NCBI GenBank assembly: GCA_045647125.1
Contig: JAZRLZ010000019.1
Span: 593-64,592, forward strand
Length of the DNA: 64,000 bases
Direction: 5' to 3'
Origin: Acutalibacteraceae bacterium
GTDB taxonomy: Bacteria > Bacillota > Clostridia > Oscillospirales > Acutalibacteraceae
Both the position numbers and the translations under genes were made by a program. Positions within the stretch are counted from its first letter, which is position 1, and each line of letters starts with the position of its first letter. The notes below the pieces were generated by a model that saw only the letters and a program-made list of their open reading frames with translations, did not search any database and was not told the DNA's origin. Positions 13,807 to 35,062 of this stretch are shown in pieces.

Positions 13807-13842
13807 AAGCAGTGAATGTGTTTTGCATTCACTGCTTTTTTC
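13807..13842 (+). terminator. Rho-independent terminator of the chbG-like gene
   Basis: 12-bp stem aagcagtgaatg/cattcactgctt followed by a T-run. Confidence 0.85.
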
Positions 13843-13899: not shown

Positions 13900-13934
13900 A
13901 TGAAACAAAGCACCTTAAGGGTGCTTTGTTTCAT
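13900..13934. other. Perfect 15-bp-arm inverted repeat (hairpin) at the left edge of the phage-derived locus
   Basis: atgaaacaaagcacc-ttaag-ggtgctttgtttcat. Overlaps the stop codon of the ImmA-like gene. Only a weak T-run follows it. Confidence 0.5.
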
Positions 13935-14140
13935 CTTTTCATACTTCCTTCAATCATCTCAACCGGAAGCTCCTTAAAAAAGTCGTTGCGATGAATATGT
14001 GTTTTTTCGTGTTCGAGTGATTTCTTTTTTGCTTCGTCAGACAAATCCATATTAACATAAATGTTAAAGTCCCCGTTTGAATCAGGTATCGTGAATGCTC
14101 TGATTGAAAGGGGCATTTTTATTTCTCTGATAAAGAACAA
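13931..14140 (-). CDS. Short ImmA/IrrE-like metallopeptidase (HExxH)
   Basis: 69 aa. TTG start 8 nt after GGAGGT. HEKTH motif preceded by the ...IPDSNGDFNIYVN... pattern seen in short ImmA-like proteins. Lies directly downstream of the XRE gene. Confidence 0.5.
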   Translation of the reverse strand: MFFIREIKMPLSIRAFTIPDSNGDFNIYVNMDLSDEAKKKSLEHEKTHIHRNDFFKELPVEMIEGSMKR

Positions 14141-14163
14141 TAGTTTTTACCTCCAATATACTT

Positions 14164-14517
14164 TCATGTGTCCGGGTTTGTATCCACCAGAGCATTAAGC
14201 ATAACTATAAATGAATCAAGCTGCTCCTCGGTGGCTTTTTCCGAAATATCAAAAAGCAGACGACGTTTTTTATGTAGGGAGTTGATGCTTTGGCTAAGTC
14301 CGCCACCCTCGGGGGTAGGGGTGTTGAACTCATCATAAAAGTAGTTGAGGTCAACACCGAAATATCGGGCTATTTTAACCAATGTATCTGTACTCAGGCT
14401 TTTTGAACGTTGCTTTTTTAATTCGGTCAAGGTACTGCGTGGTATGTCAATTTCTCTGCACAAGGCAGCAATAGATATTTTTTGCTCAGTGCATAGTTGG
14501 TAGATTTTGTCATACAT
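14164..14517 (-). CDS. XRE-family helix-turn-helix repressor
   Basis: ATG 14517 lies 9 nt after AAAGGAG. HTH segment ISIAALCREIDIPRSTLTELKKQR. Confidence 0.8.
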   Translation of the reverse strand: MYDKIYQLCTEQKISIAALCREIDIPRSTLTELKKQRSKSLSTDTLVKIARYFGVDLNYFYDEFNTPTPEGGGLSQSINSLHKKRRLLFDISEKATEEQLDSFIVMLNALVDTNPDT

Positions 14518-14611
14518 ACACAAATACTCCTTTCTGTTTTTGGTCATTCCTACAAAAGATACAGAAAAACGAACATTTGTTCTCAAAAAGGCAGAAATGT
14601 ACAAAATTCTG

Positions 14612-14620
14612 TGCTATAAT
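14612..14620 (+). promoter_or_regulatory. Candidate rightward extended -10 promoter (TGcTATAAT) for the late operon
   Basis: TGCTATAAT at 14612-14620; no good -35 element. Confidence 0.3.
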
Positions 14621-14656
14621 ACAAAACGAGTTCGAAACTCTGTACTGTTTGAGTTT

Positions 14657-14685
14657 AATATATCGCATTTATTTGTATTTGTCAA
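14657..14685 (-). promoter_or_regulatory. Leftward sigma-A promoter (TTGACA-17 nt-TATATT) for the XRE/ImmA transcript
   Basis: The reverse complement of 14657-14685 reads TTGACAaatacaaataaatgcgaTATATT. Confidence 0.55.
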
Positions 14686-14705
14686 TAACATTTGGGAGGT
14701 TTTTT

Positions 14706-14930
14706 ATGGACAACAAATTCAATCGTGTAATGTGTCCCTTTTTCAGGGGATCAGGAAAGCAGACCATAACTTGCGAGGGTTTCAATCATAATACTGATTG
14801 TAAACAGAGATTTAGCGATGCGATTGTAAAAAATGAATACGAGCACGAGAAATGCTCAACCGTCAGTTATCGCAATTGCCATTATTACAGAGCACTTGCT
14901 CTGCTTTATGACAGGGGTATAAAGAAATGA
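14706..14930 (+). CDS. Small Cys/His-rich protein, first gene of the rightward operon
   Basis: ATG 14706 lies 5 nt after GGGAGGT. 74 aa with five Cys and three His. Confidence 0.55.
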   Translation: MDNKFNRVMCPFFRGSGKQTITCEGFNHNTDCKQRFSDAIVKNEYEHEKCSTVSYRNCHYYRALALLYDRGIKK

Positions 14931-15187
14931 GCCCGTCGCAGAAGCGTGTGGCAAAAATAGAAGCGGCTACAAACAATATGGCGTGTCTTATTGACAGTAT
15001 TGTTAAGGATGCTCTTAAGAATTACCGAAAAGCCGGTGAAATCGGACTTGATGCCAAGTTTCTTAAGGAAAGCGTAACAATTCTTCGCGAGATGTGGAAT
15101 CTTCTTGATTCGGCAGAGGAGCCCATAAGCGTTGATGAAGGAATTGTTATAAAGCTTGAGGGACAGGTGGAAAAATGGTGCAAATAA
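14927..15187 (+). CDS. Small hypothetical protein in the position usually held by a small terminase subunit
   Basis: ATGA overlap with the upstream ORF. 86 aa, predicted helical. No motif recognised. Confidence 0.5.
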   Translation: MSPSQKRVAKIEAATNNMACLIDSIVKDALKNYRKAGEIGLDAKFLKESVTILREMWNLLDSAEEPISVDEGIVIKLEGQVEKWCK

Positions 15188-15245
15188 TAAATGAGGTGAT
15201 TATATAACTCAGCTTACAATATCGGAGCCCAATGAGAAGCAGAAA

Positions 15246-16559
15246 TTGTTTTTTGAATCAAAAAAGCGTTTTATCGGCTACGGCGGTGCAAGAGGTGGAG
15301 GCAAATCATGGGCTTTAAGAACAAAGTTTATCTTACTTGCTTTTAATTACCCGGGACTGAAGCTTTTGCTTTTGAGAAAAACATTGCCGGAATTGCGTGA
15401 AAATCATCTTTTACCTATGCTTGCTCAGCTTAACGGAATAGCACACTACAAGCGTGATGAAAGGGCGTTTATTTTTCCTAACGGTTCACGAATCCGACTG
15501 GGCTATTGTGATACGGAAAATGATATTTATCAGTATCAAGGTCAGGAATATGAGGTTATCGGTGTCGAAGAATGTACACATTTTACCTTTAATCAGATTC
15601 AGTTTCTTACCACTTGCAATCGAACAACACGAGATGATTTTAAGCCACGTATGTATTTTACGGGTAACCCGGGTGGTGTGGGGCATAACTGGTTCAAGCG
15701 TCTTTTTGTAAAAGGGCGTTACGAGAGTGCTGAGGACCCTGAGGATTATGACTTTATTCCCGCCACAATAGATGATAACAAGGTGCTTATGGAAAAGAAT
15801 CCTGAGTACGTAAAGGTACTTGATTCCTTACCTGAAAAGCTTCGTCAGGCACATCGCTACGGTAACTGGGATATTTTCGATGGTCAGTTTTTCGAGGAAT
15901 TCCGCGATTGCCGTGACCATTATGGTGACGGACTTTACACCCATGTTATTGAGCCTTTTGAAATACCCCACGGATGGAAGATTTATCGTTCATTTGACTT
16001 CGGCTACGCAAAGCCTTTTTCGTGTGGTTGGTGGGCAGTTGATTATGACGGCAGATTATACAGAATTCTTGAATTATATGGTTGCACAAAAACTCCCGAT
16101 GAGGGTGTTAAGTGGCCGCCTGAAAAGATTTTTTCGGAAATAAAACGTATAGAAAATGAGCACAGATGGTTGAAAAACAAAGAGATTATTGGTGTAGCTG
16201 ACCCCTCGATATGGGATGCATCCAGAGGTGAAGCCATTATTGAAGCTGCCAACAGAAACGGAATATTTTTCAATAAGGGGGACAACAAGCGTCTGCCCGG
16301 TTGGATGCAGGTGCATTACCGGCTTTGTTTTGATGAATCGGGAGTGCCTATGATGTACGTTTTTGAAAACTGCAAGGGTTTTATACGAACAATTCCTGAG
16401 CAAAGCTTCAGTGAATCGAATCCTGAGGATCTTGACACATCGGGTGAGGATCACATTGCCGACGAGGTTCGATATATGTGTATGGCACGACCTATACCGC
16501 CTACCTATAAAAAGAAGTCGGAAATTTTCGGTGATGACCCCTTGAATTTGCGAAGATAA
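15246..16559 (+). CDS. terL: Terminase large subunit
   Basis: Walker A-like GGARGGGKSWA. C-terminal nuclease-type motif GEDHIADEVRYM. The frame is open back to 15195 (see finding on the start codon). Confidence 0.9.
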   Translation: MFFESKKRFIGYGGARGGGKSWALRTKFILLAFNYPGLKLLLLRKTLPELRENHLLPMLAQLNGIAHYKRDERAFIFPNGSRIRLGYCDTENDIYQYQGQEYEVIGVEECTHFTFNQIQFLTTCNRTTRDDFKPRMYFTGNPGGVGHNWFKRLFVKGRYESAEDPEDYDFIPATIDDNKVLMEKNPEYVKVLDSLPEKLRQAHRYGNWDIFDGQFFEEFRDCRDHYGDGLYTHVIEPFEIPHGWKIYRSFDFGYAKPFSCGWWAVDYDGRLYRILELYGCTKTPDEGVKWPPEKIFSEIKRIENEHRWLKNKEIIGVADPSIWDASRGEAIIEAANRNGIFFNKGDNKRLPGWMQVHYRLCFDESGVPMMYVFENCKGFIRTIPEQSFSESNPEDLDTSGEDHIADEVRYMCMARPIPPTYKKKSEIFGDDPLNLRR

Positions 16560-16581
16560 AAAACTGATATGGAGGTACAAA

Positions 16582-18246
16582 TTGAAAGATAAAGAAGAAA
16601 AACTTAACAAATCACAGAAGTACCAAAAGCCCGTTGCCTTTAATATTAACGGCACAATGGGTGTAATCGGAAAGGAGCAGGTGGAAAAGGCTCTTTCCGT
16701 TCTGAAAAAATATAAGGAGGGTAAAGCCTCCTTGGAAAATCGAGTGATTGATAACGAGCAATGGTTCAAAATGCGACATTGGGAGCAGCTCAGAGGCGAT
16801 GGTGATGAAAATGCTTCTGCATGGCTTTTTAACTCTATTGCCAACAAGCATGCCGATGCAATGGATAATTTCCCTGCAATAAACGTGTTGCCCCGAGAGG
16901 CAAGTGACCGTGCTGCTGCAGAGGTTTTGTCACATATTCTGCCTGTTGTGTTTGAGCGTAACGGATTTGAAAAGATTTATAACGATTGTTGGTGGTACAA
17001 GCTGAAGGTAGGTACTGCAGTTTACGGAATATTCTGGAATCCGCGTAAAAATAACGGGATAGGTGATATCGAAATCCGTCAGGTTGATTTGCTTAATCTT
17101 TTTTGGGAGCCGGGTATCAAGGATATCCAGAAAAGTAAAAACCTTTTCTACGTTGAGCTTGTGGATAATGAAACACTTGTGGCACTTTATCCTCAGCTTT
17201 CGGGAAAGCTTGGTGCAAATAGTATTGAGATTGCACACTACGTTTATGATGACAGTGTTGATACATCATCGAAAAGTGCTGTGGTTGACCATTATTACAA
17301 AACGCTTCGTAACGGTGTGGAAACTTTGCATTATTGCAAATTCTGTAACGGTGAGCTTTTGTATGCTTCCGAAAACGATCCTGCATATATGGAGCGTGGA
17401 TTCTATGACCATGGCCAGTACCCCTTTGTGTTTGACACATTATTCGTGGAGGAGGGTACACCATGCGGCTTCGGTTACATTGATATTATGAAAGATGCAC
17501 AGAAGCAGATTGATACCTTATCGAATGCATTTGTGCGTAATGCAACGATGGCAACTAATCCTCGGTATTTCATTAACTCTGCAGGTGCGGTAAACGAACA
17601 GGAATTTGCAGATTGGTCAAATAATTTTGTTCACGTTTCGGGCAGTAATCTCGGCGAGGATAGTATTCGTGAAATACGTATGTCGGGTATTCCCGATATT
17701 TATCTCGGCATTCTTAACAGTAAAATAGACGAGCTTAAAGAAACAAGCGGTAACCGTGATTTCAGTCAGGGTGGTGTTTCAAGCGGTGTTACCGCCGCAA
17801 GTGCTATTGCCGCTTTGCAGGAGGCGGGAAGTAAGCTTACACGAGATATGGTGAAAAGCGGATACCGAGCCTTTTCGGAGCTTAATTCACTTGCGGTTGA
17901 GCTTATACGTCAGTTTTATGATGAACCGCGATTCTTCCGTGTGCTCGGATCAAACGGAGAACAACAGTTTGTTTCTTATGATAACTCCGCCATAAGGCTT
18001 CAGCGTGATGTTACAGCTTTTGGTGAGGAGGTTTATACCCGTAAACCCATATTCGATATCAGGGTATCTGCGGAAAAATCAAGCCCCTTTACTACCATCA
18101 GCCGAAATGAACTTGCATTACAGCTTTATAACTCGGGTATGTTTAACCCTGAAATGCGTTCTCAAGCGATACTTGCCATTGATATGATGGATTTTGAGGG
18201 TAAAAGTGCTTTGCTTGCAAAACTTACCTCGGGGGGAGCTTTATGA
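16582..18246 (+). CDS. Portal protein
   Basis: 554 aa immediately after terL. TTG start 5 nt after GGAGGT. Called on position and size. Confidence 0.7.
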   Translation: MKDKEEKLNKSQKYQKPVAFNINGTMGVIGKEQVEKALSVLKKYKEGKASLENRVIDNEQWFKMRHWEQLRGDGDENASAWLFNSIANKHADAMDNFPAINVLPREASDRAAAEVLSHILPVVFERNGFEKIYNDCWWYKLKVGTAVYGIFWNPRKNNGIGDIEIRQVDLLNLFWEPGIKDIQKSKNLFYVELVDNETLVALYPQLSGKLGANSIEIAHYVYDDSVDTSSKSAVVDHYYKTLRNGVETLHYCKFCNGELLYASENDPAYMERGFYDHGQYPFVFDTLFVEEGTPCGFGYIDIMKDAQKQIDTLSNAFVRNATMATNPRYFINSAGAVNEQEFADWSNNFVHVSGSNLGEDSIREIRMSGIPDIYLGILNSKIDELKETSGNRDFSQGGVSSGVTAASAIAALQEAGSKLTRDMVKSGYRAFSELNSLAVELIRQFYDEPRFFRVLGSNGEQQFVSYDNSAIRLQRDVTAFGEEVYTRKPIFDIRVSAEKSSPFTTISRNELALQLYNSGMFNPEMRSQAILAIDMMDFEGKSALLAKLTSGGAL

Positions 18247-18563
18247 CAAGGGTAACCTACAGAAGCTACTATGACAGATTTCTTGTTATTGTTGAAGGTC
18301 ACAGCGGATATGCAAGGTGTGGTGAGGATGTTGTGTGTGCAGGTATTTCTACACTTGTTTACACCCTGGTTAACACTATGCTTGATGAAGAGGCCTCGGG
18401 CAACATAAGACTCAAGCGTAATATAATCCGAGATGGCTATGTTTGCCTTGAGATAGAGCTTTTTGAATTTTCAGGTAACCGTATAAAAGGGATAATTGAT
18501 GCTTTTATGAATGGCATTATGATGCTTCAGGAATCGTACCCTAAAAATATTTTTGTTGAATAA
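18243..18563 (+). CDS. Prp-like cysteine protease (ribosomal-processing protease / DUF464 family)
   Basis: 106 aa. His/Cys dyad context VEGHSGYARCGEDVVCAGIS, matching the GH...D(I/V)VCA signature of Prp. Confidence 0.75.
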   Translation: MTRVTYRSYYDRFLVIVEGHSGYARCGEDVVCAGISTLVYTLVNTMLDEEASGNIRLKRNIIRDGYVCLEIELFEFSGNRIKGIIDAFMNGIMMLQESYPKNIFVE

Positions 18564-18644
18564 TGATATATAAACTGCAGTTTTTTATATATGACACTTC
18601 GGAAAGACGATGAAAAAACTTACATAACTTTGAAAGGAAAATGT

Positions 18645-19412
18645 ATGGAAAAATTAGAATGGCTTACTCCCGATATACAGCTTTTTGGCGGTGAGGGTCA
18701 GGGTGCTGAAATCGGGGAAACGGGCGGAAATATAGCCGACGCCGGGCAGAAGTCAGAGCCTGAGATGAACGATGACGAGGAATTTGAAAGCCTTATAAAC
18801 GGCAGATTCAAGGATAAGTTTACTAAAAAAACTCAGGCAATAATTGACAAACGCTTCAAAACAACAAAGGAGCTTGAGGAATACAAGGCCAAAACCTCGC
18901 CCATTATTGAGGGACTTATGGAAAAATATAATATCCCTGCAGGTGAGGAGGCAAGGCTGCTTGAAGCTGATTTCGATACAATGCATACAGAAGATGTATC
19001 GGAAGCAGAGCCACCACGTGAGGAGGCTGTCAGTCAGCTTATAAAATCCCGTGTTGCACAATGGATAAAGCAGGGTGAGGAGCTGAAATCAAAGCTTCCC
19101 TACTTCGATTTGCGACAAGAGATGAAGGAGCATAAAGAATTCTCAAAGCTTCTTCTTGGCGGTGTTGATGTTAAAACCGCATACGAAACCGTTCATCGCG
19201 ACCGTATTATGTCAGATGCTATGGCATATACCGCATCAAAGGTGCGTAAGCAGGTTGTAGATAACATTCAGGCAAAGGGTATGCGACCCGTAGAAAACGG
19301 AACATCATCCCAAGGTGCCGTAATGACCGCAGTGGATGTCAATTCCCTGACCTCACAGGATATATTAAAAATATTAAAACAGGTTGAGAATGGCGCAAAC
19401 GTTAAGTTTTAG
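18645..19412 (+). CDS. Scaffolding protein
   Basis: ATG 18645 follows GAAAGGAAA. Acidic and helical, with EEFESLINGRFKDKF resembling DUF4355-type scaffolds. Located between Prp and the capsid gene. Confidence 0.7.
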   Translation: MEKLEWLTPDIQLFGGEGQGAEIGETGGNIADAGQKSEPEMNDDEEFESLINGRFKDKFTKKTQAIIDKRFKTTKELEEYKAKTSPIIEGLMEKYNIPAGEEARLLEADFDTMHTEDVSEAEPPREEAVSQLIKSRVAQWIKQGEELKSKLPYFDLRQEMKEHKEFSKLLLGGVDVKTAYETVHRDRIMSDAMAYTASKVRKQVVDNIQAKGMRPVENGTSSQGAVMTAVDVNSLTSQDILKILKQVENGANVKF

Positions 19413-19432
19413 CCATCGGAAAGGAATTATTT

Positions 19433-20443
19433 ATGACAGACTACATTTTTAACATTCAGAATTTTGCGGCAGGTGAGGAGGTTAATAAAACCACAACAAC
19501 ATCACTTTCTGCAGAGATGAAAACATTTTATGATAAAACACTTATTACACTTGCATCACCTTATCTTGTTCATGACCAGTTTGGTCAGAAGCGTGACATT
19601 CCTAAAAATGGTGGTAAAATCATCGAGTTTCGTAAGTTTTCTTCACTTCCTAAGGCTCTTACACCTCTTACAGAGGGTGTTACACCTACAGGTAAGAAGC
19701 TTGATGTTTCTGCAGTAAGTGCAACTGTTGAGCAGTATGGTGACTACATTGAACAGTCCGATTTGCTTGAACTTACTGCGGTAGATAACACTATCGTTGA
19801 AGCCACAAAACAGCTTGCGGCTCAGGCGGGTCTTACTATGGATACTGTTGTACGTAACGAGATTGTTGGTGGTACAAACGTTATTTATTGTCCGAAGGTA
19901 AACGGTGAAACAGAAACTGTTGTAACATCACGTGGTGCAATTGACAGCACATCACTTTTACGTGTTAAGGATGTTTTCAGAGCAGCGGCAGAGCTTAAGG
20001 CTATGAATGCTCCTAAAATTGATGGTTATTACGTTGGTATTATCCACCCTTACGTTGCTTATGACCTTATGCAGGAGGCAGGTAATCAGTGGATGGAGGT
20101 GCAGAAATACACTACACCCGAAAATATGCTTAATGGTGAAATCGGCTGCCTCGGTGGTGTGCGTTTTGTTGAAAGCACAGAGGCTAAAATCTGGAATGGC
20201 GGTGCAAATGGATGTGCAGTATTTGCAACACTTATCCTCGGTGCCGACGCATATGGTGTAACCGGTGTTAATGGTGGCGGTGTTGAACACATAGTTAAGC
20301 AGAAGGGTTACGGGAATGATCCCCTTAACCAGCGTTCTTCAATCGGTTGGAAGGGTCTTAAGACTGCAAAAAGACTTGTTGAGGAATATATGGTAAGAAT
20401 TGAAAGCGGTTCAACATTCAGTTCAACTGCAAAAGAAAACTGA
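19433..20443 (+). CDS. Major capsid protein (HK97 fold, N4-gp56-like family)
   Basis: 336 aa. The pattern GGKIIEFRKF...PLTEGVTPTG...QYGDYIEQSD recalls the N4-gp56 MCP family. Confidence 0.8.
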   Translation: MTDYIFNIQNFAAGEEVNKTTTTSLSAEMKTFYDKTLITLASPYLVHDQFGQKRDIPKNGGKIIEFRKFSSLPKALTPLTEGVTPTGKKLDVSAVSATVEQYGDYIEQSDLLELTAVDNTIVEATKQLAAQAGLTMDTVVRNEIVGGTNVIYCPKVNGETETVVTSRGAIDSTSLLRVKDVFRAAAELKAMNAPKIDGYYVGIIHPYVAYDLMQEAGNQWMEVQKYTTPENMLNGEIGCLGGVRFVESTEAKIWNGGANGCAVFATLILGADAYGVTGVNGGGVEHIVKQKGYGNDPLNQRSSIGWKGLKTAKRLVEEYMVRIESGSTFSSTAKEN

Positions 20444-20569
20444 TTATCAGTTGATTTAATCGGAAACTAAAGGGTTGCTGTGTTGCCTTGTAAGGTTTTT
20501 AGCGAATCCCATTTCGGCTTTATTAAGGCAACACAATTTCCCGGATTTTTAACTTATAGGAGGCTTATT

Positions 20570-20809
20570 ATGTCTGAAAATAGTACTAAAGCAACAAAAA
20601 ATACAAAACAGGAAAAGCTTGTAAGCGTGTTTATTCCAAAGCAGTCTCGTAACGATACCCAGCGTTTTGTTGCGGTGAATGGCGAGCGTATCCTTGTGCA
20701 GACGGGCAAAACAGTTGAAGTGCCCGAAAGATTTGCCGAGGTCATCAGAAATTCTGAAAAAATGGCGGCGGTTTCTGCCGAATATATTGATAAAAACATT
20801 TCCCTTTAA
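20570..20809 (+). CDS. Small virion-module hypothetical protein
   Basis: ATG 20570 lies 7 nt after AGGAGG; 79 aa. Confidence 0.5.
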   Translation: MSENSTKATKNTKQEKLVSVFIPKQSRNDTQRFVAVNGERILVQTGKTVEVPERFAEVIRNSEKMAAVSAEYIDKNISL

Positions 20810-20828
20810 TTAAAAAAGGAGGGTTAAA

Positions 20829-21206
20829 ATGACTATTGCTCAAGCAATACAGAGCTTTGATGCCGACAGGGGTAATAACCTGCCCTTTGAAAACAAAATC
20901 AGGTGGTTATCAGAGCTTGATTACAAAATATCTGCGGATCTTCTTGAGGTGCGGAATGGTGAAAATTTCGGAGGATACACCCTCGAAACACCCCACGATA
21001 CAAAGCTTCTTGCAGATGAACGTTTTTGTGAAATTTATAGTTATTGGCTTAATATGAAGCTGGATTATCTTAACGGTGAAATCGTGAGGTTAAATAACAG
21101 TACCCTTATTTTTAACCGACTGTATAAAGAGATGTCCGATTATATTAATCGCAGTACACCCATACCACAGAAAAATAAAATAAAGGCAGGGGATATTATT
21201 GTATAA
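20829..21206 (+). CDS. Hypothetical head-completion/adaptor-position protein
   Basis: 125 aa with RBS AAGGAGG upstream; called on position only. Confidence 0.5.
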   Translation: MTIAQAIQSFDADRGNNLPFENKIRWLSELDYKISADLLEVRNGENFGGYTLETPHDTKLLADERFCEIYSYWLNMKLDYLNGEIVRLNNSTLIFNRLYKEMSDYINRSTPIPQKNKIKAGDIIV

Positions 21207-22953: not shown

Positions 22954-23971
22954 TCTGAATCTTATTGTGCCTGATATTACATCGTCGAAATATTCCGACG
23001 ATAACAAATTCAGGCTTCTTAAAAATTATCTTTACCAGCTTAATGAAACACTTTCCTTTGCTCTTAGTGATAAAACCGCAACAATGGTTAACGGTGTGCA
23101 GGGTGAAAGCATCAGTAATTCATCACAGCACGATGAGAATGTTAAGCTCCTTAGTGCTCAAAGTATGAAAAAATTCAACGAACTTAAGGAAAAAATAATC
23201 ACCACCGCAGAGGATATTCAGCGTGATTACTCTTCCAAAATTACTGAAACCGAAGAGGGAATTCTGCATACAGTAAGCGGAAGCTACGTTCTTAACAGTG
23301 AGTTTGGGGAGTATAAAAATCAGGTTGATACAAGCCTTGATCAGAATGCGGACAGTATCAACCTTGTTGCAGAAAATGTAGAAAAGGTCACCGCTGATGT
23401 GGAATCGGTACAAGGTGATGTGGAATCGGTGCAGGGTAATATGAAAAGCCTTGATGATGATCTGCAGGAATTCAAGGAACAACAGAAAAGTGAGTTCATT
23501 GTTCAAGCGGATAATATAATGAGCAAGGTGGAAAACACCTTTACATTAAAGGAAGAGACCGCGGAGCTTGAAAGTCGGATGGGATCACAGATTGTGCAGT
23601 CTGCAACGGATATTACGGAAAACTATACAAGCATCATTGCCCGTACACAGGAGGATTTGTCTACCGTGGGCGGTAGTTTTGCTGAGTTTGTGTCGGAGCT
23701 TGATGTGTATATACGCCGTGGTGAGCTTGAAAGCGGTGTTTACGGTATCGAAATCGGGCGCAGTGACAGTAACATCAAGGCTCGGTTTACCAATGACCGA
23801 TTATCTTTTTATCAGGGCATTGCCGAGGTTGCCTATATATCGGGCAGTAGCCTTTATATAAATAATGCACAGATACTTGATTACCTTAAGTTAGGAAACG
23901 ATTCCCAGGGTTATTTTGTATTTGACACAACAAAAAACGGATTGGAGGTGCGTTGGATAGATGTCGGCTGA
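22937..23971 (+). CDS. Coiled-coil structural protein (fibre/needle candidate)
   Basis: 344 aa with heptad-rich sequence, including the tandem ADVESVQG DVESVQG repeat. Confidence 0.5.
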   Translation: MMTMYDLNLIVPDITSSKYSDDNKFRLLKNYLYQLNETLSFALSDKTATMVNGVQGESISNSSQHDENVKLLSAQSMKKFNELKEKIITTAEDIQRDYSSKITETEEGILHTVSGSYVLNSEFGEYKNQVDTSLDQNADSINLVAENVEKVTADVESVQGDVESVQGNMKSLDDDLQEFKEQQKSEFIVQADNIMSKVENTFTLKEETAELESRMGSQIVQSATDITENYTSIIARTQEDLSTVGGSFAEFVSELDVYIRRGELESGVYGIEIGRSDSNIKARFTNDRLSFYQGIAEVAYISGSSLYINNAQILDYLKLGNDSQGYFVFDTTKNGLEVRWIDVG

Positions 23972-25355
23972 TATAAATCCCTCAACCCTTAACCTGAGTA
24001 ATGCTACAGTAAACCCGGGGGATAGTGTTGTTGTATCAATAAATATGGAATCATCAGAGCTAAACCACAAAATAGTGTTTTCTTTGGGCTCGAAAACCCA
24101 TTCTGCTAATCTTGCGACAGGTGTGAGCACTTATACCTTTGAGATACCGAAGACATGGGCAAATCAGCTTTCGGGTGCGGTGAGCGGTACTGTTAACGTT
24201 AAGCTTACAACCTGTAAGGGTACGGAAACGATAGGTACATCTACCGCAACGTTTAAGCTTGTAATACCGGAAACAAACGAGTATTGTCCCACCTTTGACC
24301 TTGTTATTACCCGTAATGATAACGGAGTGCCGTCCTCATGGAATGAATACGTAAAGGGTATTTCCACAGTTACGGTTACACCTGAAAATATCGAGTACAA
24401 AAACGGAGCATCCGTAGGCTCTGTGATGATTAAGGTGGGTAAGATAACAAAAACGGAGATACCTGCAACCTTTGATTTACCTAACGCAGGAAATATTACC
24501 GTAAAGGTAACCGTTAAGGATAGCCGCGGACTGAAAACCATAAAAACCCACGTTATAACCGTCAGAGATTATGCTAAACCCTCGGTAGATATCAAAAGCC
24601 TTACCCGATGTGATTCATCAGGCTCGGAGGATTCATATGGTACTTACGGAAGACTTTCCTTCGAGCATCATTACAGCACAGTGAATGCGAAAAACAACTG
24701 CTCCGTTGTGGTGCGCTACGGCAAAAGCGGAGAGTCGGAATATATGGGGATGAAGGATGCCTCAAATTCACCCCTGATGTTTGGTGTAGGTAGCCTTGAT
24801 ATAAGCTCCACCTATAAGGTGAGCATTGTTATTAAGGATAACATCTGCACCGATGGAATTGAGGTTGTAAGGTATATATCAAGTGCTAATATTCCTTTTA
24901 ATATACGTCCCGGTGGTAAGGGTGTTGCTTTTGGTAAGTTTTCTGAAAATGACGAGCTTCTTGAGGTTGCGTGGGATACCGATATTAAGGGTAACCTGAA
25001 TGTAGGAGGGCTTTTGAATTTTGAAAAGCTTACCTGCAACTGTACCGAGAAGGCGGAGGATTTTCATGGTGTTATCAGATATTATCCATGGCTTAATATG
25101 GTGTATTTGCGTATGCGACTTACGGTGGCAACAGGCCTTGCAGCAACGGATACGCATTACCTTGCACAAATAAGCACCAAGGTTCCAGCAATATTGAGTC
25201 CCGTAAGCACCTTTGTGGGTATCGACTCCGGTGGTCAGAGTAATGGTGCTGTTCTTAACAAAACGGGTTATGTGGTTTTAAGGTCGGATAAGCCTATAAC
25301 AACGGGTACGTTTATTTATATAAACGGGTGGTATCCGGCAGATACAACAGTTTAA
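23961..25355 (+). CDS. Tail/receptor-binding-type structural protein
   Basis: 464 aa, beta-rich and T/S/V-rich; called on position. Confidence 0.5.
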   Translation: MSADINPSTLNLSNATVNPGDSVVVSINMESSELNHKIVFSLGSKTHSANLATGVSTYTFEIPKTWANQLSGAVSGTVNVKLTTCKGTETIGTSTATFKLVIPETNEYCPTFDLVITRNDNGVPSSWNEYVKGISTVTVTPENIEYKNGASVGSVMIKVGKITKTEIPATFDLPNAGNITVKVTVKDSRGLKTIKTHVITVRDYAKPSVDIKSLTRCDSSGSEDSYGTYGRLSFEHHYSTVNAKNNCSVVVRYGKSGESEYMGMKDASNSPLMFGVGSLDISSTYKVSIVIKDNICTDGIEVVRYISSANIPFNIRPGGKGVAFGKFSENDELLEVAWDTDIKGNLNVGGLLNFEKLTCNCTEKAEDFHGVIRYYPWLNMVYLRMRLTVATGLAATDTHYLAQISTKVPAILSPVSTFVGIDSGGQSNGAVLNKTGYVVLRSDKPITTGTFIYINGWYPADTTV

Positions 25356-25381
25356 AGTGCAAGTAGAAAGGATTTGATAAA

Positions 25382-26620
25382 TTGGCATATACAACTATTT
25401 CTTACGGCTCATCGGGAAATGATGTAAGAAAACTGCAGGAAGCCCTTAATAAAAAAGGGTATGGCCTGACGGTAGATGGTGAATTCGGTGAGAAAACGAG
25501 GAATGCCGTCAGGGATTATCAGCGTAAAAATAACCTTACTGTTGATGGCATTGTAGGTGAAAATACGTGGAGCTCCCTTATAAAAAAACAAAGTAAAAAT
25601 ACAAGTAAAAATAATAATTCCAATAAAAGCAGAAAAAATACGGAAACCGCTATGACCTCACCACGTCCTACATATCAAAAGGGCGAGGATGTTATAAATG
25701 CGGAAAATCAGTTGAACAGATGGGAGAAGAATGCTCCCAATGAGTATCAGAGTCAGTATGATGAGCGTATTGAGGCTTATCTTGATCAGATTCTTAATCG
25801 TGAGCAATTCAGTTATGATCTTGAAAGTGACCCTGTTTACAGACAGTATCGTCAGTTATATATCCGCAATGGTGAAAGAGCAATGGCAGACACCATAGGT
25901 GAGGCCTCTGCTTATACAGGCGGATACGGAAGCTCCTATGCACAGACTGCAGGTCAGCAGGCCTATGATAACTACCTTGAAGGACTCAATGACGTTGCAT
26001 TAGAGCTTTATGATATGGCGTATAAGGCGTATATGGATGAGGGACAGAAGCTTGTTGAAGACCTTGAGATTTTGCGTGAGCTTGATGGTGATGACTACGA
26101 GCGTTATCTTGATGAGCTTGATAAATATTATGCAGATGGCGAGTATCTTCTTAAAAAGCTTTCTGAAATGAGTGATAAAGATTATGAACAGTTTTTACAG
26201 GCTGTGAGTGAATGGGAGAGCGATCGTGATTATCAGTATCAGAAGCAACAGGATGCTTTGGAGCATCAGGAATTCCTTGATGAGCTTGAATTCAAACGGC
26301 AGGAGGCTCTTCGTCAGCAGGCAAATGAGGACAGAGAGTATCAGCTGGCACGTGAAAAGCTTAATCAATCGAAATCTAAGTCAAGCTCAAAATCTTCATC
26401 ATCAAGAAGCAGTAAATCAACCTCAAAGGATAAGGACGAAAGCGAAAAGAAAACAAATGAATACACTGTGTACCCTAAAACCTATGGCCAGTTTGTAGCC
26501 CTTACGGGATATGCGGGAATTATGTCGGAGGCGATGTTCAAGAGTAGCTCTCCCATGAAAGAAAAGTACGGCACCTATCAGAAATATCTGGAGGTAATGT
26601 ACGATAAATATGCAAAATAG
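25382..26620 (+). CDS. Virion-module protein with an N-terminal PG_binding_1 domain and a long acidic/low-complexity region
   Basis: GSSGNDVRKLQEALNKKGYGLTVDGEFGEKTRNAVRDYQRKNNLTVDGIVG. Serine/lysine run SKSKSSSKSSSSRSSKSTSK. Confidence 0.6.
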   Translation: MAYTTISYGSSGNDVRKLQEALNKKGYGLTVDGEFGEKTRNAVRDYQRKNNLTVDGIVGENTWSSLIKKQSKNTSKNNNSNKSRKNTETAMTSPRPTYQKGEDVINAENQLNRWEKNAPNEYQSQYDERIEAYLDQILNREQFSYDLESDPVYRQYRQLYIRNGERAMADTIGEASAYTGGYGSSYAQTAGQQAYDNYLEGLNDVALELYDMAYKAYMDEGQKLVEDLEILRELDGDDYERYLDELDKYYADGEYLLKKLSEMSDKDYEQFLQAVSEWESDRDYQYQKQQDALEHQEFLDELEFKRQEALRQQANEDREYQLAREKLNQSKSKSSSKSSSSRSSKSTSKDKDESEKKTNEYTVYPKTYGQFVALTGYAGIMSEAMFKSSSPMKEKYGTYQKYLEVMYDKYAK

Positions 26621-26629
26621 GAGTAAAAG

Positions 26630-28411
26630 ATGGAAGTAAAAGTTACAAAGGATAATGTGTGCATAACCAATCCTGTTGCTGTCAATAGCGGTGAATATAT
26701 GGTAAACACTTGCAAATTTATTTTGCCCCGATGCTTTGAGGGGCTTGTTGTAAGCGCTGTTTTTAATAAAACACCTGTACCGTTAACGGGGGATAGCTGT
26801 TATATTCCTGCTCTGAAAAAAGGCACCCATACCCTTGGAGTTTATGCATACAAAAAGACGGGTGATGAGGTGGAGCTTATGTATTCACCCCGTCCCGCAA
26901 CATTTTTCGTTGGTGGCGGCTCTTATGTTGACGACCCTTCCGTTGAGGAGATACCGTCTGTATCGGAGTTTGAAAAATACTGTGCGGCAGTTTCTGCACT
27001 TACATTTCCGAAATCAAGTGTTATTACGGAGTTTGATGTGGAAAAGGAATACGACAGTAGTCACGTTCTTTCGGTGGGTGCACTTCAAAGTGTACTTGAA
27101 ATGTATTCTGCGGAAATTGTTGCTCTCAGGAATTATAGCGATAAATTGAATAATGAATCAGAAAAAATAAGCAGAAGAGTTACCAACGTTGATGCTTCAT
27201 CTACCGATGATACATATCCTACCGCAAAAGCAGTGTATGATTGTACGGATTCTGTGAGAAAAAGCGTTTCGGCAGAAATTGAGCGTATTGAAATGGGCGT
27301 TTCCTCTGTGGGTGGGGATATAAAAGTGCTGACAAATAAGGACTCTGCCACAAATAAGCGTGTTGATGATGCTTTCGGGGAAATCGAAATACTCAACACC
27401 GAGGTCGAAGGTGTAAAAGGTGCGGTAACCGGTGTCAGGGAAGATGTGGAAGCTCTTAATATCAGTCTGGAAAAAACAGATAGTGACCTTATATCACTTT
27501 CGGAAGACATAAATGAATCTCATACCGGAATTGCGGAATTGCAGAATTCGATTGAGGAAACAAATAACCATATACTTCAGGTAGAAAGTCAGATGACGGG
27601 TGGTGTTTTTGGCTATGCTAATGCGCTTAAGGGGTATGTAGAGGGTGAAGGTAGCGTAGAGATTAATGATATAAGTCCGGTAAAGCACTTTTTCGATATT
27701 AAGCTTAAAAGTGATACAATAACTGATTTTTCGGGTGTTTCCCTGACAAGCGGAAGCAAGAATATTTTTAATATTTCCGAAAGAAGTCTGCGTGCCTTCG
27801 GTTATAGCGGTGTAACCAATACACGTGAGCTTGACGGAAAAAGCGTTTATCTTGCAGTTTCGGGTACAAATGCCTACAAGCACAATTCGGGTACCTTAAA
27901 ATATAATGAAAGTACAGGCACACTTCAATGTGACGTGGTTTATGCTATGTATGGCCCCGGCTTCGATATAGCGGTTGAGCCACAGACAAAATACTCTGTA
28001 AGTGTAAAGGAGTTTTCTGCAAACGGACGTATTTCTATTGCATATTATAACTCCTCGGGTGAGTTTATTTCTTATGACACACTTCGTACCAGCCAGACTA
28101 TTACAACACCTGTAAATGCTGTGTGGATGGTAGTTATCTTTACCTCATCTGTTAACAACAGTACAGTATACTTCAGTGATATTCAGGTGGAGAAGTCAGC
28201 GGAAATAACACCATACACGCCCTATGCTCCTGAAAAAACCGTTGTTTCAGCCTCGAATGGTCTGGTTGAGGGAATTATGAGCTACGGTTCCTATATTAAG
28301 CTTTGGACAAATACCCCGGAGGTTACTGTTTCGGTTGAATACAACCGCGATATAAACGTAGCTTTTAATAGCCTTAAAAGTGCTATCGAAACCTTAGGTG
28401 TGGTAGTTTAA
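26630..28411 (+). CDS. Tail fibre protein
   Basis: 593 aa. Fibre-type motif DDTYPTAKAVYD, then coiled-coil segments and a beta-rich C-terminal domain. Confidence 0.65.
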   Translation: MEVKVTKDNVCITNPVAVNSGEYMVNTCKFILPRCFEGLVVSAVFNKTPVPLTGDSCYIPALKKGTHTLGVYAYKKTGDEVELMYSPRPATFFVGGGSYVDDPSVEEIPSVSEFEKYCAAVSALTFPKSSVITEFDVEKEYDSSHVLSVGALQSVLEMYSAEIVALRNYSDKLNNESEKISRRVTNVDASSTDDTYPTAKAVYDCTDSVRKSVSAEIERIEMGVSSVGGDIKVLTNKDSATNKRVDDAFGEIEILNTEVEGVKGAVTGVREDVEALNISLEKTDSDLISLSEDINESHTGIAELQNSIEETNNHILQVESQMTGGVFGYANALKGYVEGEGSVEINDISPVKHFFDIKLKSDTITDFSGVSLTSGSKNIFNISERSLRAFGYSGVTNTRELDGKSVYLAVSGTNAYKHNSGTLKYNESTGTLQCDVVYAMYGPGFDIAVEPQTKYSVSVKEFSANGRISIAYYNSSGEFISYDTLRTSQTITTPVNAVWMVVIFTSSVNNSTVYFSDIQVEKSAEITPYTPYAPEKTVVSASNGLVEGIMSYGSYIKLWTNTPEVTVSVEYNRDINVAFNSLKSAIETLGVVV

Positions 28412-28421
28412 GGAGGTTTTT

Positions 28422-28751
28422 ATGGAATTTATAGAAAAAGCCCTGCTTGTAACCTCGTTTTTTACCGCTTTAGTTGGTGTGATTGCCTTTATGGTAAAGG
28501 TTTATAAATTTATACGTGCATGGGAAAAGTGGGTAGAGGAAAAGGATGCTCACGATAAGGATAATTATATGTCAATTCAGCAATTGAAAATAATGTCCCC
28601 ATATATGCCCTTGTCGGAGCGTATAAAAGCAGGTGAAAAATATATTCAATGTGGCGGCAACGGAGAGGTCAGGCATATATACAACGAGCTGCTTGACTGT
28701 ATAAGCTTTGATGAGAGTAATATTCAAGGCGAATGTGATGTTGAGTTTTAA
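28422..28751 (+). CDS. Single-TM lysis-cassette membrane protein (holin-accessory / XhlA-position)
   Basis: 109 aa, one N-terminal TM helix, directly upstream of the holin. Confidence 0.45.
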   Translation: MEFIEKALLVTSFFTALVGVIAFMVKVYKFIRAWEKWVEEKDAHDKDNYMSIQQLKIMSPYMPLSERIKAGEKYIQCGGNGEVRHIYNELLDCISFDESNIQGECDVEF

Positions 28752-28769
28752 CAGGAGGCACGAGATTAT

Positions 28770-29057
28770 ATGAAGATTAATTTAAAAGTAAGGTTAAGGA
28801 ATAAAACCTTTGTTGCGGCATCTGTAGTGTTGATAATTTCTTTTTTGTACACCCTTCTTTCCCTTTTTGGCTTTGTGCCTCAGGTGTCAGAAAAACAAAT
28901 AACCGAGCTTGCAATGATGGGAATTAATATTTTAGCATTTTTAGGTGTGCTTATTGACCCTACAACAAAGGGGATAAATGATAGCGAAAGGGCAATGCAG
29001 TATTTGAGAGTTGTCGGAAATGATATTGAGAGTGAAGAGGTGATAATTAATGAGTAA
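28770..29057 (+). CDS. Holin (SPP1/phi-LC3-type)
   Basis: 95 aa, two TM helices, characteristic IDPTTKGINDS motif. Confidence 0.75.
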   Translation: MKINLKVRLRNKTFVAASVVLIISFLYTLLSLFGFVPQVSEKQITELAMMGINILAFLGVLIDPTTKGINDSERAMQYLRVVGNDIESEEVIINE

Positions 29058-29730
29058 GCGTATTTATATTTCGCCCAGCAGTCAGGGGGATAATGCCTAT
29101 GCCTACGGCAACACAAACGAAAAGGAGCAATGCGAAAAAATTGCAAAGGCTTGTGTAGCCTTTTTGCAGGAGCAGGGCTTCAATGTAAAGGTGCGATATA
29201 ACAGCGATATGTATGTGAGGGTAAGCGAAAGTAATGCTTTCGGTGCGGATTTGCACGTTGCAATTCACACAAACGCTACTGCTTCGCACAATGTTACGGG
29301 TGGTACGTCGGTTTTGCTTTATGACCTTACGGGGGAGCGTAAAAAGGCAGGTCAGGCGATTTTTGACCGACTTTCACCAATTACACCGGGTAAAAGTGCA
29401 GAAAGAATTATGGCTTATCCCGGCTTTTACGAAATTAAAAACACAAATGCACCTACAGTGTATTGTGAATGCGAATTCCATGATACAAAAGATGGTGCGA
29501 AATTCATTGTGAATAACACCGTGCGTATCGGGGAAGCAATCGCAAAGGGTATCTGTGACTATTATGGTGTAAAAATCAACGATGGAAATAAAAACAACGC
29601 TCCGTCAGATGGCGGAACGCTGTATACTGTTCAGGTAGGTGCATTTTCTGAAAAAGCTAATGCACAGAACCTTCTTAAAAAGCTTGAAAAAGCAGGGTTT
29701 GATGGTTATATAACAACTAAAAAGAGATGA
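29050..29730 (+). CDS. Endolysin: N-acetylmuramoyl-L-alanine amidase (Amidase_3) with a C-terminal SPOR domain
   Basis: ISPSSQ...N...HTNA amidase pattern. C-terminal YTVQVGAFSEKANAQNLLKKLEKAGFDGYI SPOR-like segment. Confidence 0.8.
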   Translation: MSKRIYISPSSQGDNAYAYGNTNEKEQCEKIAKACVAFLQEQGFNVKVRYNSDMYVRVSESNAFGADLHVAIHTNATASHNVTGGTSVLLYDLTGERKKAGQAIFDRLSPITPGKSAERIMAYPGFYEIKNTNAPTVYCECEFHDTKDGAKFIVNNTVRIGEAIAKGICDYYGVKINDGNKNNAPSDGGTLYTVQVGAFSEKANAQNLLKKLEKAGFDGYITTKKR

Positions 29731-34910: not shown

Positions 34911-35062
34911 ATTTTTATAAATAAATTTAATAAAAAAGATACAATATTATCTTATTTACGACACAAATAATTCTAAAAAAGAAAATATAATCGTACATAT
35001 TGTGGTAAAATGTCTATGATTAGTACTTTTTGTGTACATATAGATTTTTAAAGGAGGACAAT

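Follow-up and report, generated by a model that had tools for sequence, protein, structure and literature searches.

A probable domesticated podovirus-derived particle locus beside chbG in Acutalibacteraceae

Gene content and borders of the cluster

The stretch of DNA analyzed here (i.e., the window) comprises 64,000 nt of Acutalibacteraceae bacterium (contig JAZRLZ010000019.1 of GCA_045647125.1, positions 593-64,592), and coordinates are window-based unless another locus is named. From 13.9 to 29.7 kb, the window contains a cluster in which two minus-strand genes face 17 contiguous plus-strand genes, the latter encoding head, short-tail and lysis proteins in a single array. The 19 genes in all differ from the count of a preliminary description made from the sequence alone, which had given 19 open reading frames (ORFs) on the plus strand and 21 in total. 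Gene products were assigned by profile searches of all 19 ORFs against Pfam, PHROGs and NCBIfam, and these searches supported the content that had been described, i.e., the large terminase subunit (TerL), portal, Prp protease, scaffold, major capsid protein (MCP), tail proteins, a transmembrane (TM) protein, a holin and an amidase. As had also been described, every ORF is intact in the window, with a non-canonical start for TerL (ATA 15204), and only ORFs of 74 and 86 aa lie between the regulator and terL. In the "ImmA-like/XRE pair" of that description, the XRE member was confirmed by matches to HTH_26 (E 3e-11), HTH_3 (E 2e-8) and the repressor families phrog_8, phrog_3 and phrog_4, but the ImmA-like label of its partner was not: this small HExxH protein matched only phrog_20936 and phrog_20886, both of unknown function, and had no match in Pfam or NCBIfam. 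Given its motif, it is a possible candidate for a minimal ImmA-like antirepressor protease.

In agreement with the preliminary description, none of the 19 ORFs matched integrase, recombinase, Rep, primase, helicase or polymerase families in Pfam, PHROGs or NCBIfam, and no cluster ORF matched tape measure, tube or sheath families in Pfam or PHROGs. Ten shadow ORFs (110-257 aa) that run antisense to or overlap the genes of the cluster were also without Pfam match, and Pfam searches of the small ORFs (HExxH, Cys-rich, 86-aa, TM and others) up to E 5 returned nothing meaningful. A lone "integrase" PHROG match (E 2e-4) was dismissed, as it maps to PG_binding_1 in the 412-aa protein. The window contains no tRNA genes, a search for att-like direct repeats flanking the cluster found none, no Rfam family was found at the cluster borders, and megablast of the 15.8 kb against a phage collection gave no match. 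The integrase with att sites, replication module and sequence-specific small terminase subunit (TerS) that mark a temperate prophage are absent from the locus. The features of the cluster and its control region are as follows.

13900-13934: hairpin with T-run (16-bp stem) that overlaps the stop of the HExxH gene; likely the xre-HExxH terminator and left edge of the element
13931-14140, minus: small HExxH protein (ORF of 69 aa; probable start ATG 14116, 61 aa; HEKTH motif)
14164-14517, minus: XRE-family helix-turn-helix (HTH) repressor (117 aa from ATG 14517 by homologue alignment; the ORF reaches 14604)
14570-14582: Cheo-type LexA (SOS) box CGAACATTTGTTC, about 9 nt upstream of the -35 of the operon promoter
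14592-14620, plus: operon ("late") promoter, CAGAAA, 17-nt spacer, extended -10 TGcTATAAT
14597-14645: two imperfect palindromes GTAC(A/G)G...C(T/C)GTAC, one in the promoter spacer and one just after the -10
14657-14685, minus: xre promoter TTGACA-17-TATATT (11/12 consensus positions)
14706-14930, plus: Cys-rich 74-aa protein, first gene of the operon, no family match in Pfam or PHROGs
14927-15187, plus: probable 86-aa TerS-like protein without N-terminal HTH ("TerS-lite"), directly upstream of TerL
15204-16559, plus: TerL (Terminase_3/6N; phrog_979, E 3e-47; mechanical ORF from TTG 15246)
16582-18246, plus: portal of the P22/SU10 type (P22_portal PF16510, E 2e-27; phrog_156, E 6e-77)
18243-18563, plus: Prp cysteine protease (PF04327, E 3e-14)
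18591-19412, plus: scaffolding protein, between Prp and MCP (phrog_13908, E 1e-48; probable start ATG 18645)
19433-20443, plus: MCP of the N4-gp56 family (TIGR04387, E 9e-81; phrog_1357, E 4e-86)
20567-20809, plus: small head/connector protein (80 aa from ATG 20567, ORF from 20480; phrog_15239; homologues 70-84 aa)
20829-21206, plus: 125-aa conserved virion protein (phrog_12105, E 4e-25), probably an adaptor or connector
21199-22953, plus: 584-aa tail nozzle-like protein (phrog_511, E 7e-60)
22937-23971, plus: 344-aa coiled-coil fibre protein (Pfam coiled-coil matches only; weak match to phrog_1885, minor tail protein)
23961-25355, plus: 464-aa DUF859 tail/fibre protein (PF05895, E 2e-13; phrog_372, E 7e-43)
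25382-26620, plus: 412-aa virion protein (N-terminal PG_binding_1 PF01471, E 4e-22, and a charged helical region)
26630-28411, plus: 593-aa receptor-binding protein (RBP) with conserved N-terminal anchor and variable C-terminal domain
28422-28751, plus: 109-aa single-TM protein with hydrophobic N-terminus, no family match; putative lysis accessory or holin partner
28770-29057, plus: holin (Phage_holin_1 PF04531, E 1e-18; phrog_297)
29050-29730, plus: N-acetylmuramoyl-L-alanine amidase with SPOR domain, endolysin (Amidase_3 PF01520, E 7e-19; PF05036, E 5e-10)
29731-30810, minus: secreted BspA-type leucine-rich repeat (LRR) protein, convergent (LRR_5, E 3e-59; dockerin-like C-terminus)

The GC content of the cluster is close to that of its flanks and does not distinguish it from them. 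On the left, the flanking housekeeping gene with its own terminator that had been described is a chbG-like gene, i.e., a YdjC-type deacetylase gene followed by a hairpin terminator at 13807-13837. On the right, the amidase stop at 29730 does abut the stop of a convergent gene at 29731. Neighbouring genes of the window are of the housekeeping kind, encoding dihydrodipicolinate synthase (DHDPS), a 2-oxoacid acyltransferase, the YdjC/ChbG-type deacetylase, an amino-acid ABC transporter and SpoIIGA.

Five large tail proteins occupy 21199-28411. The DUF859 fibre protein has 464 aa in the window and about 585 aa in most homologues, and its C-terminal part may have been shortened or replaced. The RBP slot behaves as a swap cassette, in which C-terminal domains that are unrelated between species are joined to a conserved N-terminal anchor of about 100 aa; these domains include GDSL/SGNH hydrolases, Kelch beta-propellers and unknown folds. 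Counterparts of this slot are found at 17650-19710 of locus L022, 17351-19258 of L009 and 18688-19956 of L036.

Relatives, insertion site and control region

Public data contain more than 8,000 close homologues of the MCP, and its relatives occur in 257 GTDB species genomes. A gene-by-gene comparison was made for the best 80 of the MCP-related GTDB loci (L001-L080), almost all of which are from metagenome-assembled genomes (MAGs) of Acutalibacteraceae or unclassified Clostridia from the guts of ruminants and other animals. Of the loci that have TerL, portal and MCP, the 66 best divide into 60 that form a clade with the stripped cluster and 6 that carry Rep (PF23343) and/or a full-length TerS-like gene. 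The stripped cluster is thus present in at least 60 GTDB species, nearly all represented by Acutalibacteraceae MAGs, and within this clade identity varies from 82 to 92% for MCP and from 83 to 88% for TerL. The 125-aa virion protein is found in 74 loci, the Cys-rich 74-aa gene is kept in 45 loci (including L071, a relative with Rep and full-length TerS), the HExxH gene in 37 (59-78% identity) and the single-TM gene in 32.

The stripped clade consists of two groups. Group A (44 loci, including that of the window) has the same architecture from the HExxH gene to the amidase, with XRE identities of 41-56%, and 30 of the 44 loci adjoin a host block of DHDPS, acyltransferase, PG-binding and chbG genes that ends in chbG (68-90% identity). 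Group B (about 16 loci; L033, L035-L049, L066, L067 and L070) retains the structural and lysis genes (TerL 86%, MCP 87-89%) and lacks xre as well as the HExxH and Prp genes. Eleven group-B loci directly follow nusG-rplK-rplA-rplJ-rplL, as confirmed with Pfam; the idea that the genes upstream of group-B loci were a phage early or replication module was rejected upon their identification as nusG, rplK, rplA, rplJ and rplL. The remaining 6 loci (group C; MCP 72-86%, TerL 56-79%) possess an upstream module with a full-length TerS-like gene, which matches PF03592 (E 5e-17) in one family and has no Pfam match in the other, and most of these modules also hold the rolling-circle Rep (PF23343). In IMG/VR, relatives with MCP identities of 53-68% are contigs of 38-44 kb, and those above 80% are six short fragments only (4.7-13 kb). 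Three MAGs contain both a stripped element and a related group-C locus (L008 with L052, L024 with L053 and L044 with L054). L052 and L054 carry Rep and a full TerS with a C-terminal tail that resembles the 86-aa TerS-lite, and L053 ends upstream of the scaffold gene; packaging cross-talk between a stripped element and a co-resident group-C locus is conceivable.

The preliminary description had suggested asking whether the same junction recurs in related genomes. It does so in 30 loci (29 GTDB species and the window, hereafter the chbG-sited loci) and on all 6 informative metagenome contigs from a chbG scan of 80 loci, i.e., those with chbG identity of at least 68% and a usable right flank. No empty chbG site was seen inside the clade on chbG contigs with at least 68% identity, while none of about 60 contigs with chbG identity of 65% or less in the same scan carried the element. 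The possibility that chbG is itself a gene of the element was rejected, as chbG occurs without the element in all relatives with 65% identity or less. Among the 30 chbG-sited loci, Mantel correlations between chbG and element protein distances were 0.85 for TerL, 0.87 for portal and 0.74 for MCP, compared to 0.95 for a host-host control (all p = 0.0005).

Selection was gauged from the ratio of nonsynonymous to synonymous differences per site (pN/pS), as dS is saturated and dS-corrected NG86 dN/dS was usable only for a minority of pairs. The synonymous term (pS) is saturated in element genes (0.63-0.79) as well as host genes (0.67-0.71). The pN/pS values were 0.13 for MCP, 0.14 for TerL, 0.22 for portal, about 0.3 for the regulators, 0.4-0.6 for the tail genes and 0.23 for chbG, so that the purifying selection that had been proposed as a check extends to all genes. 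For a given species pair, the pS of the element is never below that of chbG, which rules out recent spread and suggests that the element evolves faster or recombines somewhat with relatives.

A neighbor-joining (NJ) tree built from TerL, portal and MCP unites groups A and B in one clade, with group C outside. Each of the two deepest branches of this clade includes chbG-sited loci. This makes the chbG site the ancestral one, from which group B and several group-A loci moved away later. The relatives with Rep or full TerS are therefore outgroups to a monophyletic stripped clade, and the case in which homologues retain int and rep while the window copy has recently lost them, which had been named as a refutation of domestication, was not seen. 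Site, co-divergence, selection and phylogeny together refute a recent strain-specific deletion as well as random decay, and the earlier preference for domestication over random decay is supported by the fixed site, the co-divergence and the purifying selection.

The control region between xre and the operon is strongly conserved in an alignment of 45 group-A loci despite the saturated synonymous sites. GAAC-N4-GTTC is the Gram-positive LexA consensus. The LexA box of the window, CGAACATTTGTTC, is the sole exact CGAACN4GTTC in the 64 kb; it is kept as CGAACAAATGTTC in the 45 aligned control regions, and in 1.41 Mb of related loci 63 of the 76 strict LexA boxes fall within a 750-nt control interval that represents 3.7% of the sequence. 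The operon promoter of the relatives (TTGAAA-17-TATAAT) is near consensus, while that of the window has a weaker -35 and an extended -10. Conserved between species are the -35 and -10 elements with the spacer palindrome GTACAG-N4-CTGTAC and, at the xre promoter in the group-A alignment, TGTCAATACC and AATAATATA. The GTACAG-N4-CTGTAC palindromes are putative XRE operators, and palindromes of this type are missing in group B, which has no xre.

The xre promoter is convergent with the operon promoter, which the xre transcript has to cross. The two transcripts would overlap by about 20-25 nt (window 14592-14685), and their face-to-face arrangement is conserved between species. Convergent promoters of this kind could form a bistable switch through transcriptional interference. 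In group B, which has lost xre and the HExxH gene, the promoter lies between two LexA boxes, one near -50 and the other near +15, and control therefore apparently lies wholly with the host SOS repressor. From these sites we infer SOS control, with LexA and XRE acting together in group A and LexA acting alone in group B.

In most loci of groups A and B, the LRR gene trails the amidase gene regardless of the left flank (e.g., in L003, L008, L025, L048 and L049), and it is missing only in a subclade with chbG identities of about 68-70%. While the abutting convergent stop was described correctly, the assignment of this gene as host-type is thus in doubt, given that it accompanies the element in most relatives. 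The LRR gene may be cargo of the element rather than host flank, and its product may be functionally linked to the element, e.g., as a receptor or in exclusion. The dockerin-like repeats of the LRR protein were read by eye, and their Pfam EF-hand match is weak. Host surface proteins encoded at 11801-12874 and 35030-37228 also carry PG_binding_1, the second together with Dockerin_1, fn3 and SH3_3. These nearby proteins and the dockerin-like tail of the LRR protein point to a surface of the cellulosome or amylosome type, consistent with a rumen Acutalibacteraceae host.

Comparison with known systems and the terminase

The gene transfer agent (GTA) of Faecalibacterium prausnitzii (FpGTA; Nat Commun 2026) forms podovirus-like capsids of about 40 nm that contain 8.4-8.9 kb of random host DNA (PMC12946183). 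Its operon I (10.5 kb, ten genes) encodes a TerS without DNA-binding domain, TerL, portal, "Prp", N4-gp56 MCP, nozzle and "TolA" among others, and operon II (5.5 kb) contributes the BppU-like and upper fibres, RBP and SGNH anchor proteins, a holin and an endolysin (PMC12946183). The novelty that had been expected of a podovirus-like GTA in gut Clostridia has thereby been overtaken; no description of the Acutalibacteraceae element was found in the literature searched. A human-gut operon with the gene number, order and annotations of FpGTA operon I was found, flanked by host genes, in L161 and L163-L166. By tblastn, the window proteins were identical to those of L161 at 42% (TerL), 51% (portal), 31% (Prp), 30% (scaffold), 56% (MCP), 31% (nozzle) and 38% (TolA-like), and the order of this homologous core is the same in both.

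Both systems belong to Oscillospirales, are podovirus-like (as judged for the window from its genes) and lack int and rep. Each has a short TerS (a probable one in the window) without DNA-binding domain ahead of TerL, although the match between the short proteins themselves, i.e., the 86-aa family and the FpGTA-type 94-aa ORF, is not significant in hhalign (E 0.067). Also in common are a P22-type portal, a Prp gene, an MCP of the N4-gp56 family, a nozzle, an abundant "TolA"/PG-binding virion protein, a fibre of the BppU/DUF859 type, a holin and an endolysin, and RBP components of the SGNH type occur in relatives of the window element. The combined length of the FpGTA operons (10.5 + 5.5 kb) approximates the 15.8 kb of the window cluster. 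The FpGTA operons, however, lie 125 kb apart, whereas the window has a single contiguous locus, with the genes for fibres, RBP and lysis included. The FpGTA-like operon has a fusion of Prp and scaffold (317 aa), which are separate in the window; the window element has the XRE and HExxH pair and an extra Cys-rich first gene; and the LexA box(es) of this element have no counterpart upstream of the FpGTA-I-like operon, where no such box was found. From its genes, the window cluster looks like FpGTA I and FpGTA II in one piece plus a regulatory module.

The nozzle-like protein is 31% identical over 553 aa to a 623-aa protein of the FpGTA-I-like operon, the position of which matches that of RCH50846, the "tail nozzle" of FpGTA (PMC12946183). 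PDB sequence searches with nozzle, MCP and portal gave no usable match, and the nozzle assignment is therefore based on PHROG and the FpGTA paper. The 412-aa protein is 38% identical to the product of the last gene of the FpGTA-I-like operon and is, by sequence, the counterpart of the "TolA"-annotated particle protein RCH50844, the third most abundant protein in FpGTA particles (PMC12946183). Several human faecal virome contigs deposited as "UNVERIFIED Bacteriophage sp.", e.g., L161 (MT836159), L162 and other MT83xxxx records, are FpGTA-I-like operons. L161 also includes flanking host sequence, and such records are probably GTA-packaged chromosomal fragments that were deposited as phage.

The window TerL is 57-79% identical to the TerLs of relatives with full TerS and 42% identical to the FpGTA-like TerL, which belongs to a separate TerL clade and is in turn 64-69% identical to those of other full-TerS relatives. 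As each of these TerL clades has its own full-TerS relatives, two separate domestications with convergent truncation of TerS are provisionally proposed, from an NJ tree without support values and with a mosaic portal.

No small terminase had been recognized in the preliminary description, but the 86-aa ORF probably encodes a TerS from which the N-terminal HTH is missing, a domain loss that is moderately supported. Thus, of the hidden domains that had been suggested for a search, Int and Rep did not appear, while a probable TerS-like protein did. The 86-aa protein belongs to a narrow family of 68-138 aa. Its extreme C-terminus EGIVIKLEGQVEKWCK matches the C-terminus of the group-C Terminase_2 TerS at 12 of 17 residues and also matches a TerS of 139 aa that bears an HTH and is accompanied by a TerL with 77% identity to that of the window. 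In hhalign, the 86-aa family aligned with the group-C Terminase_2 TerS over the last 49 columns (E 3e-4). When the hidden Markov model (HMM) of the family (39 members) was run against the 12,878 ORFs of all loci, the top matches outside the family were all encoded directly upstream of TerL, i.e., the post-HTH region of a 198/283-aa TerS, the FpGTA-type 94-aa ORF and the group-C TerS (E 0.016-0.18), and the 86-aa protein is collinear with the post-HTH portion of the 198-aa TerS. A phmmer search against 1.84 billion representatives returned 9 short clusters only and no direct link to a full TerS. A TerS without N-terminal HTH is the best reading because of the position, the collinearity and the recurrence over three TerS families.

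Prp is known to cut 13-14 N-terminal residues off capsid and scaffold proteins at a motif that is common to ribosomal protein L27 (PMC5744158). MCP and scaffold N-termini of the element and its relatives share the conserved motif (L/I/F)N(L/I)Q(L)FA↓(A/G), which reads FNIQNFA↓AGE in the MCP and PDIQLFG↓GEG in the scaffold of the window, and the element-encoded Prp is likely the capsid maturation protease. Group B keeps the motif without a Prp gene and therefore presumably uses the host enzyme. Scaffold ORFs have about 210-285 aa in the stripped clade compared to 286-328 aa in group C, and portal ORFs about 547-597 aa compared to 610-668 aa. The shorter scaffold and portal, as well as the fusion of Prp and scaffold in the FpGTA-like operon, could be tied to a change of capsid size. 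Given that the related viral contigs have 38-44 kb, the ancestral capsid was built for far more DNA than the 15.8-kb cluster.

The Bacillus megaterium podophages Page, Pony and Palmer and the uncultured 38-44-kb Oscillospirales podophage contigs have the same gene order as the window element, with MCP, portal, TerL, scaffold, nozzle and PG-binding protein in common. The window MCP is 36% identical to that of Page/Pony and 53-68% identical to those of the IMG/VR contigs. The cultured phages are of about 40 kb, and several related loci have a full-length HTH-bearing TerS (139-198 aa), whereas the window element keeps about 37% of the podophage coding capacity. Among relatives that carry Rep, the closest are GTDB loci, e.g., L052 with its rolling-circle Rep.

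PBSX of B. subtilis is likewise a chromosomally fixed cluster of structural and lysis genes without int and rep. It packages host DNA. Further similarities are an xre repressor with an adjacent small protease-like gene and a link to SOS, which for the window element would run through the LexA box and for PBSX is seen in xkdA, listed in the LexA/SOS regulon (PMC3896406). In contrast to the window element, PBSX is of the myovirus type, with sheath, tube, tape measure and a full TerS (xtmA), and its tail genes have no counterpart in the window: the P22-type portal, the nozzle-like protein and the podovirus nature of the cultured relatives differ from a contractile tail of the PBSX type.

GTAs of the RcGTA type are vertically inherited head, tail and packaging clusters of about 15 kb under purifying selection, with a TerS that lacks sequence-specific DNA binding and with lysis of the producer. 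The window cluster is also about 15 kb long, vertically inherited and under purifying selection. RcGTA is, however, siphovirus-like with a prohead protease of the HK97 type, is controlled by CtrA, GafA and quorum sensing instead of LexA and XRE, and has its lysis and several accessory genes elsewhere in the genome. No sequence relationship between RcGTA and the window cluster was detected. Of the features by which GTAs are defined, the window locus has a structural cluster without autonomous replication or integration functions as well as vertical inheritance with purifying selection, the latter qualified by an element pS at or above that of the host and by some relocations.

Proposed mechanism, rival explanations and significance

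The findings are best accommodated, with reasonable though not high confidence, by a domesticated podovirus-derived particle locus of the viriform/GTA-like kind, related to FpGTA, that became fixed beside chbG in an ancestor of these Acutalibacteraceae and was vertically inherited thereafter. The locus is a distant homologue of the FpGTA-I-like operon and was probably domesticated independently. At rest, the operon promoter would be silenced by LexA at the Cheo box and by XRE at the palindromes, where the sites are observed and the occupancy is conjectural. Upon DNA damage LexA would cleave itself, the HExxH protein may inactivate XRE as ImmA does ImmR, and transcription from the operon promoter would shut down the convergent xre promoter. 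A single transcript of about 15 kb would then yield portal, scaffold and the N4-gp56-type MCP, and Prp would trim the N-terminal peptides that end in ...Q(L)FA↓A off scaffold and MCP, as can be expected from the cleavage known in phage 80alpha. TerL would work with the 86-aa TerS, in which the core and the TerL-binding tail appear to be kept and the HTH DNA-recognition domain to be gone; packaging would therefore not be directed by a pac site, and chromosomal DNA would be taken up by the headful, as in RcGTA and FpGTA. The short tail would be assembled from adaptor, nozzle, fibres and the species-variable RBP, and holin and amidase would lyse the producer and free particles that would carry host DNA to related cells.

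Several observations weigh against this account. Every carrier found is a MAG, from the gut of cattle, yak, deer, goat, sheep or camel, and particles, packaging and transfer are predictions for the whole clade. With the LexA box at about -50, off the core promoter, the effect of LexA in group A is uncertain; the retained phage-type XRE switch makes the locus less "host-controlled" than classical GTAs. The homology of the 86-aa ORF to TerS is statistically weak (hhalign probability 39%; HMM E 0.02-0.06 in a set of 12.9k ORFs), and the Cys-rich 74-aa protein could supply the DNA binding instead, though its presence in the full-TerS group-C locus L071 makes it an unlikely replacement module. At the position of its homologues' start (MKELIIS...), the window TerL lacks ATG, GTG and TTG. 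The aligned start is ATA (15204-15206), 4 nt after a strong Shine-Dalgarno sequence (GAGGTGA) and with the homologous 14 N-terminal codons in frame, and it is either a rare start codon that keeps TerL levels low or the onset of decay in the window genome. Within the same species pairs, divergence at synonymous sites is higher for element genes than for chbG, and strict vertical descent may thus be blurred by recombination with related phages or elements. In addition, 14 group-A loci and all of group B lie in other chromosomal contexts, so that relocation does occur, although some of the 14 have too little left flank for their context to be judged. It should also be noted that the operon in L161 and L163-L166 was equated with FpGTA I by gene number, order and annotations, not by organism name.

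The same genes might form a killer particle like that of PBSX, released upon SOS induction to kill or damage competitor strains on adsorption, with its DNA incidental and undelivered. We consider this unlikely. It would explain the PBSX logic of xre repressor, SOS link, lysis genes and missing int and rep, the hypervariable RBP slot and the PG-binding virion protein would fit targeting, and the possibility was left open for FpGTA by its authors (PMC12946183). The lack of sheath, tube and tape measure means, however, that there is no contractile killing device, and the position of TerL and MCP as the most conserved genes is unfavourable to it; the conservation of TerL in particular argues that DNA packaging matters. 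TerL also matches the PBSX-family terminase model of NCBIfam only below the cut-off. A still-selfish element, i.e., a defective or helper-dependent phage that spreads horizontally and obtains int, rep and full TerS in trans from co-resident relatives, would be in keeping with the three MAGs in which a stripped element is paired with a related full-TerS locus (with Rep also in two of them), the C-terminal tail common to TerS-lite and the TerS of the related loci, the elements at other sites and the excess of element pS over host pS. It is at odds with the occupation of the same site in 30 loci without empty sites in the clade, the strong co-divergence with host genes, the saturated pS without recent transfers, the lack of att repeats and the finding of only six short IMG/VR fragments above 80% MCP identity, and we give it little credence.

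Anti-phage interference, in which the capsid and terminase genes, especially the HTH-less TerS, compete with the packaging of related phages and the benefit to the host is defence, would likewise draw on the shared TerL-binding tail and on the co-occurrence of stripped elements and related phage-like loci in the same MAGs, and SOS control would activate the locus upon prophage induction. None of the full tail, the diversifying RBP module and the lysis genes would be required for interference, yet all are under purifying selection, and interference as the main role appears improbable. No PADLOC or other indication of defence turned up either, and no search aimed at it was made. That the cluster is an ordinary cryptic prophage remnant, decaying and functionless, could be read from the missing int and rep genes, the non-canonical TerL start in the window genome and one fibre gene that is shorter than its homologues. 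It is effectively refuted by the 19 ORFs being open in the window and across at least 60 species, a dN/dS far below 1 for every gene despite saturated dS, the conserved non-coding control region and the monophyly of the clade at a fixed site. A more speculative elaboration, to which we assign a low probability, regards the locus as a LexA-wired host organelle for DNA release that came from the same Oscillospirales podophage stock as FpGTA but independently of it, with a second, convergent loss of the DNA-recognition domain of TerS. As the HTH-less TerS appears to share its TerL-binding tail with the TerS of related phage-like loci in the same genomes, it could also deprive those phages of packaging specificity or block their packaging, and the locus would be a combined SOS gene-transfer and anti-phage device.

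To our knowledge, GTAs were for long known almost only from Alphaproteobacteria. With FpGTA, podovirus-like GTAs were found to operate in a dominant genus of the human gut (PMC12946183), and the probably domesticated locus of the window adds to this kind a large clade with at least 60 species of Acutalibacteraceae from rumen and hindgut. The comparison suggests that the same phage stock was domesticated more than once and that TerS lost its DNA-recognition domain each time. With the conserved LexA box and XRE switch, together with a sister lineage apparently controlled by LexA alone, the regulatory logic of such an element becomes readable for the first time. For practical purposes, loci of this kind should be scored neither as prophages nor as viral contigs. 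If the particles transfer DNA, they would account for part of the bacterial DNA in gut viromes, and SOS-triggered exchange could be a major unrecognized route of gene flow in the ruminant gut, including that of resistance and carbohydrate-utilization genes.

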